The notes beneath the pieces are model-generated. The model made no database searches and had not been told where the DNA came from. It saw nothing but the letters and a program-made list of their open reading frames with translations. Of a stretch of DNA of 64,000 nucleotides, positions 21,654 through 49,302 are shown one piece after another. The stretch's first letter is position 1, and each line of letters starts with the position of its first letter. The stretch covers positions 38,520 to 102,519 of the forward strand of contig QBVW01000006.1 of NCBI GenBank assembly GCA_003284215.1, read 5' to 3'. The stretch is from SAR86 cluster bacterium AG-313-D11. GTDB taxonomy: Bacteria; Pseudomonadota; Gammaproteobacteria; Magnimaribacterales; D2472. Both the position numbers and the translations under genes were made by a program.

Positions 21654-21929
21654 ATGAAAAAAATATGCATAACTGCTCTTGCCTTATTGATCATTCCCTC
21701 TGTCAGCTTTGCAGAAATTGCAATTCAAGATGGATACAGTATTGAAGGTAAAATATTTGCTGTGAAAACTTCAAAAAAATATGCTTCTGTTGATAGTTGC
21801 GCAAAAATTGCAATGTCTAAAAGTCGTGTTGCGGGCTTTACCTTTAAATCAAGCTCTAAAAAATGTTTCCTTTATAAAAATGTTAGAGCTTTAAAAGAGG
21901 ATTCAGGCTCTGTTTCTGGAACAAAGTAA
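21654..21929 (+). CDS. small secreted protein, possibly PAN/Apple-like
   Basis: It has a signal peptide, a strong SD (AAGGAG), and the pattern C...GFTF....KCFLYKN. The assignment is weak. Confidence 0.4.
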   Translation: MKKICITALALLIIPSVSFAEIAIQDGYSIEGKIFAVKTSKKYASVDSCAKIAMSKSRVAGFTFKSSSKKCFLYKNVRALKEDSGSVSGTK

Positions 21930-21948
21930 AATATATTTTTAAAACTTG

Positions 21949-21974
21949 AAAGGGAGCAATCCTCCCTTTTTTCT
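21949..21974 (+). terminator. rho-independent terminator
   Basis: The hairpin is AAGGGAG-CAATC-CTCCCTT, followed by a T-run. Confidence 0.7.
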
Positions 21975-22020
21975 AAATAATCTTGGATTTATAGATTTTT
22001 TCTTGCATACTCTCATTTCT

Positions 22021-22170
22021 ATGAATAATGCAGTTGGATCTATAAGATCATCTAATCAATTAATAGCGCTTTGCTTTCAATGCTGTGCGGTTGCATCTGT
22101 TTCATACATCACTCCATTTAGCAGAAGACGAAGATCTATCTAAAAACCCCCAGTAATGGTGTGGTTTTTT
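22021..22170 (+). promoter_or_regulatory. candidate Arg-codon leader ORF plus terminator-like hairpin (attenuator) preceding the arg operon
   Basis: The 40-codon ORF (22021-22143) ends ...FS-RRRR-SI-stop, with AGA AGA CGA AGA at 22123-34. A hairpin at 22142-22170 (AAAAACCCCCA-GUAA-UGGUGUGGUUUUUU) ends 8 nt before the argF' ATG. Confidence 0.35.
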
Positions 22171-22177
22171 ATCTAAG

Positions 22178-23170
22178 ATGAAGAATTTTATTACAACTCA
22201 AAATTGGTCAAGAGCAGAGCTACAGGACATTATTGATTTTGCTATTGAGCTTAAAAATAATCCCTACCAACCGCTTTTACAGAATAAATCAATTGCCATG
22301 TTATTTTTTAATCCCTCTCTTAGAACTAAAACTAGTTTTGAGGTTGGAATTAGAGAGCTCTCTGGAACGGCTGTAATCCTTCAACCTGGAAAAGATGCTT
22401 GGCCTATTGAATTTGAAGAAAAGATTGTAATGGATGGAGGCTCAGAAGAGCACGTAAAAGAGGTTGCGCAAGTCTTATCATCATATTGTGATTGCATAGC
22501 GATCAGAGCATTTCCTGAGTTTAATGATTGGGATCATGATAGGACAGATTCAGTCATTAACAGCTTTGCACAATATTCTTCTGTGCCGGTGGTAAATATG
22601 GAGACCATTGAGCATCCATGCCAAGAACTTGCTCATCTTTTAACTTTGCAAGAACATTTAGGTGATCTGCAAGGTAAAGATTATTTACTAACCTGGACTT
22701 ATCATCCTAAGCCATTAAATACAGCAGTTGCTAATTCCAGTCTCTTGATCGCTAGTAAGTTTGGTATGAATGTTAAATTGTTATGTCCATCTGAAGAATA
22801 TCATCTGGATAAAAGATATTTAAAAGCTGCCAAAGATAATTGTGAATCTGAGGGAGCCTCATTCGAAGTGTCCTATGATATTAATAGCGCATATTCAAAT
22901 GTAGATATTGTCTATGCAAAAAGCTGGGGGTGTCTCAGTCATTATGGAAAAATCGATGATCAGATAGCCATCAATAATCAATACAAGCACTTTATAGTTG
23001 ATGAATCAAAGATGAGTCTTACAAACAATGCTGTTTTTAGTCACTGCCTTCCCTTAAGAAGAAATGTAAAAGCAACTGATGGGGTTATGGATGCTGATTA
23101 TTGTATTGCGGTAAAAGAAGCGGCGAATAGAAAGCATGTTCAAAAATCCATGCTTAGTAAAATTTTATAG
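22178..23170 (+). CDS. argF': N-acetyl- (or N-succinyl-) ornithine carbamoyltransferase, ArgF' type
   Basis: It has the carbamoyl-phosphate motif (SLRTKTSFE), and HPCQ and HCLP motifs. Length and N-terminus match the AOTCase/SOTCase clade rather than classical OTCase. Confidence 0.8.
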   Translation: MKNFITTQNWSRAELQDIIDFAIELKNNPYQPLLQNKSIAMLFFNPSLRTKTSFEVGIRELSGTAVILQPGKDAWPIEFEEKIVMDGGSEEHVKEVAQVLSSYCDCIAIRAFPEFNDWDHDRTDSVINSFAQYSSVPVVNMETIEHPCQELAHLLTLQEHLGDLQGKDYLLTWTYHPKPLNTAVANSSLLIASKFGMNVKLLCPSEEYHLDKRYLKAAKDNCESEGASFEVSYDINSAYSNVDIVYAKSWGCLSHYGKIDDQIAINNQYKHFIVDESKMSLTNNAVFSHCLPLRRNVKATDGVMDADYCIAVKEAANRKHVQKSMLSKIL

Positions 23171-33598: not shown

Positions 33599-33674
33599 GC
33601 GGGAATAGCTCAGTTGGTAGAGCGCAACCTTGCCAAGGTTGAGGTCGCCAGTTCGAACCTGGTTTCCCGCTCCA
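33599..33674 (+). tRNA. tRNA-Gly (anticodon GCC), CCA encoded
   Basis: I folded the cloverleaf by hand. The acceptor stem is GCGGGAA/TTCCCGC, the D-arm GCTC-AGTTGGTA-GAGC, the anticodon arm CAACC-TTGCCAA-GGTTG, and the T-arm GCCAG-TTCGAAC-CTGGT. It closely resembles E. coli tRNA-Gly(GCC). Confidence 0.95.
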
Positions 33675-45212: not shown

Positions 45213-45499
45213 TGAAAGCTTATTGGATCACAAGATGTCATGTTCATAATTCAGATGAGTACGATGAATACATCAAGTTAGCTGGACCAGCGATTAATAA
45301 TTATGGAGGCACTTTCCTTGTGCGGGGCGGTAAGCAGATTGAGTTAGAGGGCGGACCATACGAAAGAACTGTATTGGTTGAGTTTAACTCAATGAATGAG
45401 GCAAAGCTTTGTTATGAATCTAGCGAATATCAAGACGCCTTAAAGTATTCCTCAAATTCTTCTTACCGACACGTCGTTTTAGTGGAGGGAATTAATTAA
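45212..45499 (+). CDS. DUF1330-family small protein
   Basis: The 95 aa begin MKAYWI...YGG.FLVRGG, which is typical of DUF1330. TAATG junctions overlap both neighbours. Confidence 0.65.
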   Translation: MKAYWITRCHVHNSDEYDEYIKLAGPAINNYGGTFLVRGGKQIELEGGPYERTVLVEFNSMNEAKLCYESSEYQDALKYSSNSSYRHVVLVEGIN

Positions 45500-47538
45500 T
45501 GAGAGATGTCTTTATTTTAAGAACTTTATTAAGTTTTGCCATAATTTTTACACTCAATCTATCTTCAAAAGAGCAATCTGATGCAGATAGTTTTTTTGGA
45601 AGAGAAGCACCTGTTTATCCTGCCCCAGATCATCTAATTGGCTGGATAGACTCAAGACAAATTTTTACATTGAATGGAGAATGGAGTTACATAGTTGATC
45701 CTATGAATAATGGCTTGCCTGAGTCGTCATTCTTTGGAGGATTTCCTAAAAATAAAATTCAAAAAACTGGGATGGAGTTGATTGAGTATAATTTCGAAAC
45801 TGCTTCAAAAATTAATATTCCAGGAGCTTGGAATGCTGAGGATGAAAAACTATTTTTTTACAGAGGTCCAGTCTGGCTCTTCAAAAAATTTAATTATGTG
45901 CCAAAAAAACAGTTATTAACTCATCTCTACATTGAAGGAAGCAACTTTACTACAAAGATATTTATAAATGGATTAATTGTTGGAGAGTTTGAAGGTGGCT
46001 ATGTCCCATTTAATTTTGAAATCTCCAAATATTTAAAAGATGGAGAAAATATTTTGTTGGTACAAACCGACAATACTCTTAATCAGTCCTCTGTGCCAAC
46101 GCAAAAAACTGATTGGTGGCCTTGGGGAGGGATTGTTGGTGATGTATATATTGTCGAGACTCCAAAGAACTTTATTCAAAATGCATATCTGCAGCTAAAT
46201 CCTAAAAATTTATCTAACGCTTTTTTTAATCTAGAGATGAGCAAGGAGTTATCAGGACAAAGGATAGTGCTAGAAATTCCTGAGCTTCAGTTTAAAAAAG
46301 AATTTCTTACCAATGCTGATGGATTTGTCAGAGAAAATATAGAAATTTCGCCACAGCTTTGGTCACCAACTGACCCAAAACTATATGACATAATCATTTC
46401 TTCTAATCAAGAAAGTATCTCTGATGAGATAGGATTTCGTTCCATCAAAGTAGATGGGCCAAATATATATCTAAATAATATTGAGATTAAGTTTAAGGGA
46501 ATTGCTATGCATTCTGAGCCTATTGGAATACCAGGCCCGGCTTTTTCAAAAGATCATTTTGAAAACCTTCTTTTAACGGCCAAAGACCTTAATATTAATT
46601 TTGTCAGAGCGGCGCATTATCCATATACTCGCCATTTAGCTAGGGCTGCAGATAAACTGGGCCTAATGCTGTGGGAAGAAGTTCCTGTTTATTGGAATAT
46701 TGATTGGGATAATTCTGAGACATTAAATATTGCAACCAACCAAATTAAAAGATTGGTGCAAAGAGATCAAAATAGGGCATCTGTGGTGGTTTGGTCTGTG
46801 GCAAATGAAACCCCATTATCTTCTTCAAGAATGAGATTTTTGAATACACTTCTGTCTGAGATAGAGGCTATTGACTCAACGCGATTAACTACAGCAGCTC
46901 TTTTGTCTGGAAGTGAAGAACAGTTTAAAGCATTGGTTTTAGTTTTAGCATTACAGGGAATTAAATCTTCATGGGTGAGCCCAAAAGAAAAAATTATCTT
47001 TCAATCCATCTTAGCTCAAGCAAATATACCAATTGATAGCAACTTAAATTTTTCCATTTCAATTGACGATCCACTTGGCAAAAGCGTAGATCTAATTTCA
47101 TACAATGAATACTTCGGTTGGTATTACGTAACTTTTTTTACAGAACAAATGATGATTTCTGAAGGCACGCTCAGGAAATTGATGTTTGAGGTTATGCCTA
47201 ACATAAAAATCAGCTCTGTTTTTAATAAGCCCATTCATATATCTGAATTTGGTGCTGGGGCAAAATATGGAAATCATTCAAATAAAATTTGGTCCGAAGA
47301 GTATCAAGCACAACTCTACAAACATCAATTAGAAATGTTGTCTAAGAATCCCCAAATTAAAGGAATTAGTCCATGGGTCTTTAAAGACTTTAGGGCCATG
47401 TTAAGACCATTACCAGGAATTCAAGATTTTTATAATAGAAAAGGTTTGATAGATGAGTCTGGAAATAAAAAATTAGCTTTTGAAGTCTTAGCAGATTTTT
47501 ATGAAAATAAATGGAATATTGAATCTCCATCAAATTAA
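45499..47538 (+). CDS. glycoside hydrolase family 2 (beta-glucuronidase/beta-galactosidase-like), with an N-terminal hydrophobic signal or anchor
   Basis: It has a GH2 sugar-binding domain, an acid/base motif (VVVWSVANE) and a nucleophile motif (ISEFG). Confidence 0.75.
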   Translation: MRDVFILRTLLSFAIIFTLNLSSKEQSDADSFFGREAPVYPAPDHLIGWIDSRQIFTLNGEWSYIVDPMNNGLPESSFFGGFPKNKIQKTGMELIEYNFETASKINIPGAWNAEDEKLFFYRGPVWLFKKFNYVPKKQLLTHLYIEGSNFTTKIFINGLIVGEFEGGYVPFNFEISKYLKDGENILLVQTDNTLNQSSVPTQKTDWWPWGGIVGDVYIVETPKNFIQNAYLQLNPKNLSNAFFNLEMSKELSGQRIVLEIPELQFKKEFLTNADGFVRENIEISPQLWSPTDPKLYDIIISSNQESISDEIGFRSIKVDGPNIYLNNIEIKFKGIAMHSEPIGIPGPAFSKDHFENLLLTAKDLNINFVRAAHYPYTRHLARAADKLGLMLWEEVPVYWNIDWDNSETLNIATNQIKRLVQRDQNRASVVVWSVANETPLSSSRMRFLNTLLSEIEAIDSTRLTTAALLSGSEEQFKALVLVLALQGIKSSWVSPKEKIIFQSILAQANIPIDSNLNFSISIDDPLGKSVDLISYNEYFGWYYVTFFTEQMMISEGTLRKLMFEVMPNIKISSVFNKPIHISEFGAGAKYGNHSNKIWSEEYQAQLYKHQLEMLSKNPQIKGISPWVFKDFRAMLRPLPGIQDFYNRKGLIDESGNKKLAFEVLADFYENKWNIESPSN

Positions 47539-47595: not shown

Positions 47596-47814
47596 ACCAA
47601 CTCGGACCGACTTACAAACAACTGCAGACGGGAGTAAGAGAGAAAGAGAAGGAAGAGACGAAGGGCGAAAGCGATACTAAGAGTCGACGATAAAAAAGAG
47701 CTTAGTAACCCACCAAGGAGGAAAGAGAAAGCCTCCAAGGAGCTAAAGAGATTCTCACTTTAGACCCCTTCCAATCTCGAACTGAAAAGACAGAGCTTAG
47801 CTCTGTTTTTTTTT
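47596..47814 (+). ncRNA. candidate novel purine-rich small RNA, or a long regulatory leader of pyk
   Basis: It is bounded by the promoter above and the terminator below. There is no ATG, GTG or TTG in the body. It is visibly more G-rich than the flanks. It contains the hairpin CC-AA-GGAGG-(10 nt)-CCUCC-AA-GG and a duplicated AGAGCUUAG 9-mer. Confidence 0.5.
47790..47814 (+). terminator. rho-independent terminator
   Basis: ACAGAGC-TTA-GCTCTGT followed by a run of nine T. Confidence 0.8.
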
Positions 47815-47889: not shown

Positions 47890-49302
47890 ATGAAGATCAC
47901 AAAAACAAAAATTATTGCAACTATTGGCCCAAGTACCAATAAATACAAATCATTGCAAGACCTTCATGCAGCAGGTATGAATGTAGCAAGAATTAATATG
48001 TCACATGCATCACAAGCTGATGCAGCAACGGTCATAAAGTTAATAAATAAACTTAATAAAAATCAAGCTGAATTATATGGTCCAGTTGGAACTTTGTTAG
48101 ATACTCAAGGACCAGAGATCAGAACAGGCATTAACCAATCTGATATTGACTTAAAAACGGGCGATATTGTGAATCTTACAATTAGAGATGATATTGATGT
48201 TGAGACTTCATCGATCAAGATTAATTACAAGGGCCTTATAAAGAGTGTAGCCAAAGGATCTAAAATAAGTATTGATAATGGGCTGCTCAACTTTAAGGTA
48301 TTAGCTAAAGATAATGAAAATCTTAAATGCAAGGTTATAGATGGAGGAACTCTAGGAAGTAAACGTCATGTAAACCTGCCAGGCGTTAGGGTTGATTTAC
48401 CGTCAATTACAAAAAAAGACAGAAAAGATATAAATTTTGGCATTGAACATAATGTTACTTTCATTGCTTTATCCTTTGTAAGGTCTGCTCAAGATGTATT
48501 GAATTTAAGATCCATATTAAAAAGAAAAAAGTCATCAATAAAAATCATTGCAAAAATTGAAAATCAAGAAGGCTTAGATAATATACATGAAATTACAAAA
48601 GCTGCAGACATAGTAATGGTTGCGAGAGGTGATTTGGGCATAGAAACTGATCTTGCCGATTTACCTAACATACAAAGAAGAATTATGTACGCAACTGCAA
48701 AATGGGGCAGAAGATCTATTGTTGCTACTCATTTGCTGGAGTCCATGATACATAATCCGACACCTACAAGAGCTGAAGTTACCGATGTTGCAAATGCAAT
48801 ATATGAAGGAGCTGATGCAGTAATGCTTTCTGGTGAAACAAGCATAGGTAAATATCCTATTCAGTGCATCAAAATGCTCAAGAAAATTGCATCTAAAACT
48901 GAACATTTCCGAACCCTTGGTTACGAAAAATTTCTTCAAGATAATTCTGATTGGCAAAATATTGCAAAAGGAGCTCGTGATCTTGCGGAAAGAATTAATG
49001 CAGACGGAATCATTGTTATTACTAGGTCGGGGCAAACAGCAAACGTTGTTTCAAATACAAAGCCGTTTCGTATGCCTGTTTATGCTTTCACAAATAGTAG
49101 GAATACTTTTCTTCATTTAAGTTTGATAGGAGGTATGAAGCCATATTATATAAAATCAATTACCAATCAATCACTCACAATTGAAAAGATGAAAACAATT
49201 TTATTAGCTAGTCAGAAATCTAAAAAGTCTCTTAAATTTGTTTTAATAGCAGGTATTTACTCTGCTTCACATACTGACTCAATTCAAATAATAGCAACCT
49301 AA
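47890..49302 (+). CDS. pyk: pyruvate kinase
   Basis: The N-terminus is KTKIIATIGPS. NMSHA and MVARGDLG motifs are present, and the length is 470 aa. Confidence 0.92.
   Translation: MKITKTKIIATIGPSTNKYKSLQDLHAAGMNVARINMSHASQADAATVIKLINKLNKNQAELYGPVGTLLDTQGPEIRTGINQSDIDLKTGDIVNLTIRDDIDVETSSIKINYKGLIKSVAKGSKISIDNGLLNFKVLAKDNENLKCKVIDGGTLGSKRHVNLPGVRVDLPSITKKDRKDINFGIEHNVTFIALSFVRSAQDVLNLRSILKRKKSSIKIIAKIENQEGLDNIHEITKAADIVMVARGDLGIETDLADLPNIQRRIMYATAKWGRRSIVATHLLESMIHNPTPTRAEVTDVANAIYEGADAVMLSGETSIGKYPIQCIKMLKKIASKTEHFRTLGYEKFLQDNSDWQNIAKGARDLAERINADGIIVITRSGQTANVVSNTKPFRMPVYAFTNSRNTFLHLSLIGGMKPYYIKSITNQSLTIEKMKTILLASQKSKKSLKFVLIAGIYSASHTDSIQIIAT

Follow-up and report, generated by a model that had tools for sequence, protein, structure and literature searches.

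A panD remnant, probably translated, ahead of the arg operon in a SAR86 bacterium, and a predicted arginine-codon attenuator in its sister lineages

We analyzed the region upstream of the arginine biosynthesis genes in the SAR86 cluster bacterium AG-313-D11, using a stretch of 64,000 nucleotides from contig QBVW01000006.1 (assembly GCA_003284215.1), which is called the window below. The genes formed an operon with the order argF'-argG-argE-argB-argC-argH, and a short open reading frame (the mini-ORF) that carried four consecutive Arg codons and ended at a hairpin was located directly before the first gene, argF'. An earlier note, made from the letters of the window alone, had proposed that the mini-ORF and the hairpin were an arginine leader-peptide attenuator. 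The ORF, the Arg codons, the hairpin with its GUAA loop, and the U6 run that it described were all present where it had placed them. The features of the locus were as follows (positions are those of the window).

21948..21973, forward strand: intrinsic terminator of the upstream 91-codon ORF (stem 21948-70 followed by a T run).
21983..22011, forward strand: candidate promoter (-35 box TTGGAT at 21983-88, 17-nt spacer, -10 box CATACT at 22006-11).
22021-22143, forward strand: mini-ORF (ATG at 22021, 40 codons, TAA at 22141-43), translated as MNNAVGSIRSSNQLIALCFQCCAVASVSYITPFSRRRRSI and a stop.
22123-22134, forward strand: Arg codon run AGA AGA CGA AGA (codons 34-37), followed by Ser, Ile and the stop.
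22142-22170, forward strand: hairpin at the mini-ORF stop (5' arm 22142-52, GUAA loop 22153-56, 3' arm 22157-69 with two bulged U).
22165-70, forward strand: U6 run, 8 nt before the argF' ATG at 22178.
22178..23170, forward strand: argF', encoding N-acetylornithine carbamoyltransferase (NCBIfam NF003384, 511.7 bits).

The upstream terminator, which the earlier note had also recognized, was real (fold of -11.3 kcal/mol, z score -3.7) and isolated the arg transcription unit; the upstream gene and its terminator preceded the locus in relatives as well. The upstream 91-codon ORF (21654-21929, forward strand) had no match in Pfam or NCBIfam and was conserved upstream of the arg locus in L006, L014 and L016. 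The ATG of the mini-ORF was only 9 nt past the candidate -10 box CATACT, and its mRNA would therefore be nearly leaderless. The lack of a Shine-Dalgarno (SD) sequence had been listed as a caveat, but this was not a valid objection because SD-like motifs were found in only 15 of the 42 long ORFs of the window and in none of the arg genes. Moreover, the start context of the mini-ORF was shared by an intact gene, panD, that was found at the same place in relatives.

By its ArgF' protein, the window belonged to the SAR86 clade, and the comparison set consisted of about 170 related SAR86 loci. In 65 species-level genomes, the 260 nt upstream of argF' were compared and three architectures were distinguished. 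Group A was the subclade of the window, where 9 nt separated the block TTGGWTTT-N8-TTTCTTGCATACT from the ATG of an ORF, and the ORF was followed by a hairpin and then by argF'. Group B comprised 35 other SAR86 species with a 14-codon leader, and group C comprised GC-rich gammaproteobacteria whose leaders contained RRRR or RRRRR. A scan of metagenomes that used the promoter block alone, and was thus unbiased toward the ORF, added about 95 group A loci.

In some of the group A loci (L001, L003, L010-13 and 17 metagenome loci), the same promoter and ATG were followed by an intact panD gene encoding a 129-aa aspartate 1-decarboxylase. The PanD proteins at this locus ended with ...SSIPTQR[LI]RS[LV] before the stop, and the same hairpin came next. 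The least diverged mini-ORF (L017, MKRALLHSKHHQNTVAKVELDYETFCALETVLDIPAQKLRSL) aligned to both ends of PanD, namely to residues 1-30 (60% identity, E 2e-11) and to residues 121-129. Since both ends were represented and intact panD occupied the same place, we identify the mini-ORF as a panD gene with an in-frame internal deletion, in which PanD residues ~1-33 were joined to the last ~9 residues. The deletion removed ~87 codons (residues ~34-120). It spared the promoter and the start codon with ~33 codons of the N-terminus and, at the other end, the last ~9 codons with their stop and the intercistronic GNRA hairpin. We refer to the remaining ORF as the stump. In the window, the stump had lost its resemblance to PanD at the protein level and was linked to panD through the promoter, the position, and a chain of intermediate alleles. 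The stump peptide had no Pfam match, the full-length PanD domain (PF02261) being absent from it, and even L017, as the least diverged stump, had a mutated version (DYETFC) of the Gly24-Ser25 self-cleavage site of PanD. There was no other panD within the 64-kb window.

The promoter block TTGGWTTT-N8-TTTCTTGCATACT was identical before intact panD and before all stump alleles. Judging from its consensus and this conservation, the block probably functions as a promoter, inherited from panD; it was absent from the output of a simple promoter scan. In other SAR86 genomes (group B, L171-L174), panD was the last gene of panB-panC-panD and was followed by a DEAD-box helicase gene. Therefore, the panD-argF' junction of group A appears to be a rearrangement, one that would have displaced the ancestral Arg attenuator described below. 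We rejected the possibility that the hairpin was the native terminator of panD because the panD of panBCD in other SAR86 had no such hairpin downstream.

Gene trees of argF' and argG gave some insight into the age of these alleles. Loci with panD (L001, L003, L010-L013) were interleaved with stump loci (the window, L002, L004, L055 and others); for example, L001 with panD was sister to L055 with a stump. Thus, panD and the stump look like old alleles that may have been exchanged by recombination just upstream of argF', and the stump allele was indeed old since it was found in both basal and derived lineages. Genomes either kept an open stump or had lost the stump and the hairpin together. The latter was observed in L006, L007, L014 and L016, where both were deleted altogether with no replacement. 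In these four genomes, the 60 nt upstream of argF' lacked the promoter too and contained the terminator of the upstream gene and then a TATAAT box, which aligned with the former stop-codon region (TTTAATAAT). Other variants of the locus included a 61-codon stump class (L075, L085, L091, L134 and L148) that ended with ILRFRSV before the stop, and a frameshifted panD (L154).

The reading frame of the stump was strongly maintained. The stumps formed length classes of 37, 38, 39, 40, 41, 42, and 61 codons, all of which ended at the homologous TAA, and ~81 stump loci were open while a single one was broken (L101, with a premature stop after 8 codons). By comparison, frames 2 and 3 held 3.8 and 3.2 stops per allele. 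When substitutions were counted on minimum spanning trees within the length classes, there were 0 stop gains in 613 substitution events, although a random substitution would create a stop with a probability of ~0.05 (P~8e-14). Moreover, the ATG was kept in every stump allele, the indels inside the ORF were 3 or 9 nt long, and 1-nt indels were confined to the spacer. On the other hand, the nonsynonymous share of the substitutions was 74% in the stump body, which equaled the random expectation (70-74%), as compared to 26% in intact panD. A neutral body combined with the complete avoidance of stops points to selection on the reading frame up to the stop rather than on the peptide. Thus, the peptide body appears to evolve neutrally while selection keeps translation through to the stop. 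The conservation of the ORF in relatives, which the earlier note had named as a check of its proposal, was therefore confirmed, with the strong selection reaching as far as the stop codon at the base of the hairpin.

The Arg codons had a history of their own. Arg accounted for 3.4% of the codons in the window, and when its six frames were divided into stop-free segments of 30 aa or more (840 in total), RRRR was found exactly once, namely at this site, which set the run above chance. The native PanD tail behind the run was Q-[KR]-[LI]-[RH]-S-[LVI]. From PanD (Q-R-[LI]-R-S-L), the tails formed a series through the 42-codon class (K-L-R-S-L, the KLRSL class) and L015 (K-R-R-L-R-S-I) to the clade of 37-40 codons, where the form [KRQNS][KR]RRRS[IV] was conserved; the L008 group had RRSRSI. 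Thus, the Arg-rich tail seems to have arisen stepwise, and the run is best described as a clade-specific expansion of the native basic tail of PanD. The PanDs of other marine lineages ended with IPEQKL[RH]S[VI] or IPEQ[KR]L, and the tail IP-x-Q-[KR]-L-[RH]-S-[VI] was native to marine PanDs that do not adjoin arg genes. For this reason, we rejected the idea that the RxRS tail of PanD was captured from the ancestral leader (TQERRVSAL). In the clade with the run, the AGA codons were nearly invariant, whereas the third Arg codon varied between CGT, CGA and CGC and the Ser codon between TCT, TCA, TCC and TCG, and this synonymous variation suggested a constraint at the coding level. The four Arg codons received 16 of 308 substitution events as compared to the expected 10.6% (P 6e-4), mostly wobble changes at CGN, so the run itself is probably under purifying selection. 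Still, the stump alleles carried from 1 to 5 Arg, and the expectation that the run would be conserved in relatives held within its clade, with synonymous variation, but not among stumps in general.

A hairpin at this position was conserved in relatives, and the block AGAAGACGNAGATCTATCTAA together with the hairpin was the best conserved stretch of the leader. In the window, the hairpin had a folding energy of -9.1 kcal/mol (z score -2.9), and 1 of 200 shuffled sequences was as good. Without the first two A-U pairs, it had -6.9 kcal/mol, which 15 of 200 shuffles reached, and was unremarkable. The TAA (22141-43) overlapped the first paired base (22142), and the same geometry of stop and hairpin was found in all alleles. 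The loops of the relatives' hairpins were mostly GNRA (GUAA, GCAA, GAAA, GCGA and GUGA), while the stem sequences differed among alleles (e.g., UUCCAUCA/UGAUGGAA); in a fixed-register count of covariation, bulges shifted the pairing register from one allele's hairpin to another. The energies ranged from -5 to -10 kcal/mol in the panD alleles, from -6.4 to -10.3 kcal/mol in the RRRR clade, and from -2 to -3.7 kcal/mol in the KLRSL class. The U-tract hairpin that the earlier note had pointed out was present in the window, but a U6 tract was otherwise found only in L103. The commonest RRRR alleles had UUUCAUAAAUU and others had UUUUAUAAAUU instead, and the panD and KLRSL alleles were without a U tract. 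A simple terminator scan of the window returned no terminator at this hairpin, which is predicted to be a weak terminator-like element.

We also followed the two alternative frames from the Arg run of the window into the hairpin. The -1 frame (22122-22181) crossed the whole hairpin and ended at a TGA (22179-81) that overlapped the argF' ATG, and the +1 frame stopped at a UAA within the loop of the hairpin (22154-56). The end of the +1 frame in other alleles fell within the loop, 4 nt ahead of the ATG, or on a TGA that overlapped the ATG. The register was not conserved.

The proposed attenuator required an alternative pairing and an appropriate position of the Arg codons, and neither was found. 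The earlier note had suggested that 22083-92 could pair imperfectly with the 5' arm of the hairpin. As an antiterminator, this candidate was rejected because its pairing energy was at the chance level (-4.0 kcal/mol vs -4.2 kcal/mol in shuffles), it was absent from the minimum free energy fold, and it was not conserved. In the alleles, the duplex energies of the ORF body with either hairpin arm were equal to those of shuffles (mean z +0.3), and the fold of 22083-22172 in the window had a z score of +0.30. Likewise, RNAalifold applied to 34 leaders of the RRRR clade found no consensus structure. A covariance model of the group B attenuator (R1) did not match 22021-22170 at E values up to 10, although it matched group C terminators at E 0.07-0.7. 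Searches with Rfam returned nothing relevant for the window at the gathering threshold, nor for 21900-22260 and six related loci at a permissive threshold, the only match at the locus being a chance-level Phe_leader (20.8 bits vs the threshold of 55).

According to the earlier note, a ribosome stalled on the Arg codons would cover the 5' arm of the hairpin. However, for a ribosome with a hungry codon of the run in its A site, this codon ended 7-16 nt before the base of the stem and 12-21 nt before its G-C core, which placed the stall sites 7-21 nt upstream of the stem, and it was a ribosome at the stop codon that would sit on the stem. Li et al. (2016) reported that an E. coli terminator located a few nt past a stop codon was almost fully repressed by the terminating ribosome, and that the terminator efficiency recovered gradually and was full only beyond ~30 nt from the stop codon (PMC4824070). 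From these distances, the ribosome that completes the ORF would cover the stem and the stalled one would remain upstream, and therefore direct occlusion would be expected to favor readthrough at a high Arg supply. For a biosynthetic operon, this sign would be wrong. Since both the antiterminator and the placement of the regulatory codons were tested with negative results, the window element is outside the classical leader-peptide attenuator family. Thus, the open ORF, the Arg run, and the position of the hairpin were the conserved parts of the earlier proposal, whereas its regulatory reading was not supported, given the panD ancestry, the missing antiterminator, and the codon placement. We found no significant structure that would sequester the argF' start. 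A 5-bp AGAUC:GGUCU pairing and a weak UUCAU/AUGAA stem near this start were judged to be due to chance. We also discarded the possibility that TATGAATAATGCAGTT, at the start of the ORF, was an ARG box because only one half-site matched and the palindrome was not conserved.

Classical Arg-codon attenuation of this operon was not supported in the window but turned out to apply to its sister lineages (groups B and C), where a leader with the four segments of a classical attenuator, apparently keyed to Arg codons, preceded the same operon. The element was located ~30-190 nt upstream of argF' in the following loci.

SAR86: L020-L049, L056, L062, L064, L066 and L067.
Other gammaproteobacteria: L051-L054, L057-L059 and L068.
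Planctomycete metagenome-assembled genome, possible attenuator: L061.

In total, it was found in at least 43 species-level genomes of SAR86 and other gammaproteobacteria, possibly also of planctomycetes. The 14-codon leader of group B had the form M-x4-T-Q-x-R-R-V-x-A-[IL] with invariant AGA CGG codons, its ATG followed a TATACT box by 6-9 nt, and its stop UAG was inside segment 2 (UAGCUGGGUCU). Examples of the Arg leaders (each ending at the stop) were MNNYLTQERRVSAL, MLNAHITVSISRRRRTGANAAAG and ..IRRRRRLLMAGRDNV. A 10-bp antiterminator was formed by AGCUGGGUCU:AGACCCAGCU, where AGACCCAGCU was segment 3, and was followed by a strong terminator (GACCCAGC..GCUGGGU-U8). The pairing of segments 2 and 3 was present in 86.5% of the alignment cells as compared to 13-49% in slid controls, and 90.5% of the cells were paired in the 1:2 helix and the terminator. 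The leader of L028 folded with -34.5 kcal/mol (z score -5.2), and in both groups B and C, the antiterminator formed when the 3' arm of the terminator was withheld from the fold. Arginine biosynthesis in proteobacteria is usually said to be under ArgR control. The statement of the earlier note that no proteobacterial Arg-codon leader was established agreed with our search, as Rfam had no family for an Arg leader-peptide attenuator of arg operons and the open-access literature contained no description of one, though a prior description elsewhere is possible. Thus, the attenuator of the sister lineages is apparently undescribed.

For panD, the stump, and the group B leaders alike, a box similar to the -10 element (CATACT, TATACT or TATAAT) was observed only 6-9 nt ahead of the ATG, and because of this short distance, these mRNAs would be leaderless or nearly so. 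The corresponding sites were as follows.

Window: 22006-22023.
L028: ~2865-2890.
L172: 1484-1503.

Additionally, several group B loci had a tRNA immediately upstream of the Arg leader promoter.

Taking these observations together, we slightly favor the explanation that the window element is a translated panD stump, functioning as an upstream ORF, with the ribosomes on it masking the hairpin next to its stop and/or coupling to argF'. In this subclade of SAR86, panD with its own near-leaderless promoter adjoins argF', and this promoter would drive the arg operon. In many lineages, including that of the window, an in-frame deletion of panD would have left a translated stump. A ribosome arriving at the stop of the stump may then cover the 5' arm of the hairpin and suppress its terminator activity, and/or a ribosome finishing the stump could pass to the argF' start, which is located 34 nt downstream and has no SD. 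The logic would be that of the translation-coupled rph-pyrE and pyrBI attenuators. Such masking or coupling, which we infer from the observed origin, conservation, open frame, and lack of an antiterminator, would explain the avoidance of stops, the in-frame indels, the neutral peptide, and the pattern of either an open stump or a full deletion.

Several points weighed against this explanation. The frame of the 42-codon KLRSL class was maintained equally well despite its weak hairpin (-2 to -3.7 kcal/mol), and therefore masking of a terminator cannot be the sole reason for keeping the frame open. Coupling of translation, or a shielding of the mRNA from polarity or decay, may be more important than masking. 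No structure sequestering the argF' start was found. Furthermore, the conserved Arg run is left without a role and, taken literally, would lower arg expression during Arg starvation, and an Arg run before an arginine operon looks non-random.

The best surviving rival, which we consider rather unlikely, is that the stump was exapted as an Arg sensor, where ribosomes short of Arg-tRNA would pause at the four Arg codons by the hairpin and thereby raise arg expression. A ribosome parked within ~7-15 nt of the stem might sterically block the hairpin, a stalled ribosome might guard the transcript against 5'-end-dependent decay, as with ermC or speF, or a +1 frameshift at the hungry codons might take ribosomes into the hairpin. 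In each case, the mechanism would be unconventional because there is no antiterminator. The run encodes the end product of the pathway itself and is unique in the window, its tail is conserved next to a neutral body, with nearly invariant AGA and synonymous variation at CGN, and the sister clades appear to control the same operon via Arg codons. Pausing at the Arg codons of an upstream ORF that acts via mRNA structure or stability also has a precedent in Salmonella orf34-speF (PMC6386406). Stump alleles with 3-5 Arg had stronger hairpins and more U, and those with 1 Arg had weak hairpins, but this correlation rests on only 2-3 independent clades. Similarly, the +1 frame from the run was open into or through the hairpin in 34/34 alleles, yet a frame of ~10 codons is expected to be open by chance in ~50% of cases. 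The sensor is also at odds with the lack of any alternative pairing in the RNAalifold and duplex-energy results, with a U tract that was not conserved among the RRRR alleles, and with two of the Arg codons having been inherited from the tail of PanD. Moreover, with the stall 7-21 nt upstream of the stem and the terminating ribosome on it, occlusion predicts the opposite sign. The corresponding evolutionary scenario, that after loss of the ancestral attenuator the panD stump gained an Arg run and a stronger U-tract hairpin and now senses Arg-tRNA without an antiterminator, is equally tentative. If true, leader-peptide control would have been born de novo out of a pseudogene.

Much less probable is that the conserved 3' block is a DNA-level element unrelated to translation, such as an operator of ArgR or another repressor, or a second promoter of argF'. 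The superior conservation of AGAAGACGNAGATCTATCTAA and the hairpin and the TATAAT box at the former stop region in L006 and L007 would be compatible with it. On the other hand, no sigma-70-like site was predicted at 22021-22170 and no internal promoter in the stump, no ARG-box palindrome (TGAAT-N4-ATTCA) was visible, and no argR turned up in the window, although a 64-kb stretch cannot speak for the genome as a whole. The Ser and CGN codons varied at their third positions, as expected from a constraint at the level of coding rather than of single bases, and the GNRA loops and bulged stems point to RNA. A DNA element would also leave the avoidance of stops along the whole ORF unexplained.

We give hardly any credence to a neutral, decaying pseudogene fragment with an accidental open frame, Arg run and hairpin, for although the peptide body evolves neutrally, has no Pfam match, and was lost with the whole region from four genomes without replacement, such a fragment would not show zero stop gains, exclusively in-frame indels, an invariably kept ATG, one broken allele among ~82, and an old allele in basal and derived lineages that was interleaved with panD. 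A functional micropeptide of 40 residues, such as a small membrane protein whose C-terminus is basic, is just as implausible, since the hydrophobic middle of the window version (LIALCFQCCAVASVSYITPF) before RRRR was not shared by other alleles, the body was hypervariable with nonsynonymous change at the neutral expectation, and the length ranged from 37 to 61 residues.

Elsewhere in the window, a tRNA gene was found at 33599-33671 on the forward strand (Rfam tRNA model, 69.5 bits). In addition, a full-length IMES-1 RNA motif (RF02034, 198 bits) was located at 47601-47790 on the forward strand between genes for a GH2 glycosidase (45499-47538) and pyruvate kinase (47890-49302), and this location puts a marine metagenome RNA inside a SAR86 genome.

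With respect to the translated panD stump, the significance of the locus would be a population-scale sequence record of a pseudogene fragment that is retained purely for translation in cis, and leader peptides and upstream ORFs could plausibly begin as stumps of this kind. A tempting annotation was also corrected, as the window element is not a classical attenuator. If the attenuator of the sister lineages is truly undescribed, arginine joins the amino acids governed by leader-peptide attenuation. Moreover, the SAR86 alleles (attenuator, intact panD, stumps with 1-5 Arg, and full deletion) form a natural series on the loss and possible regain of control.

Among the known systems, rph-pyrE and pyrBI of E. 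coli were the closest in logic. In both cases, the ribosome at the end of an upstream ORF masks a terminator-like hairpin before the regulated gene, and the rph-1 frameshift of E. coli illustrates that a premature stop upstream harms downstream expression. Similarly, the upstream ORF of the window ends within a few nt of a hairpin that precedes the regulated gene, and the avoidance of stops in the stump would be the equivalent of the harmful premature stops. However, the E. coli signal is the UTP-dependent speed of RNA polymerase, and there is no such nucleotide-sensing logic for an arg operon. In addition, the upstream ORF of the window is a gene remnant, its hairpin is weak, and the U tract is specific to the allele of the window.

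The his, trp, leu, thr, ilv and phe attenuators have in common with the window a short translated ORF, a run of cognate codons, and a hairpin with U residues before the first gene. In contrast to these classical attenuators (Rfam His_leader and Trp_leader), the window has no antiterminator or anti-antiterminator, its Arg codons are 2 codons from the stop and directly before the hairpin with no room for segments 1 and 2, and its ORF is 40 codons long and derived from panD. The Arg attenuator of the sister lineages (model R1) would act on the same operon from the same site upstream of argF' and also has its Arg codons in a near-leaderless short ORF. Unlike the window, it has a leader of 14 codons or one with RRRR or RRRRR, a stop in segment 2, an antiterminator, and a strong terminator.

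In the fungal arginine attenuator peptide (the upstream ORF of arg-2/CPA1), a conserved peptide senses free arginine in the ribosome tunnel. As in the window, the upstream ORF precedes an arginine-pathway gene and the events at its stop matter; however, the peptide body of the window appears to be neutral, and its hairpin would be opened, not closed, by a ribosome waiting at the stop.

Finally, the translation of Salmonella orf34 (speFL) is needed for speF expression, acts against Rho, and unfolds an inhibitory structure, and its consecutive Arg codons tune the outcome with arginine supply without a classical pair of terminator and antiterminator (PMC6386406). It differs from the window in controlling polyamine synthesis and in having a long structured leader and the involvement of RNase G (PMC6386406). 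There was no sequence similarity between the two, and no alternative structure comparable to that of orf34-speF was found in the window. With these systems in mind, the window element is best read as a probable variant of translation-coupled leader control that has an unusual pseudogene origin.

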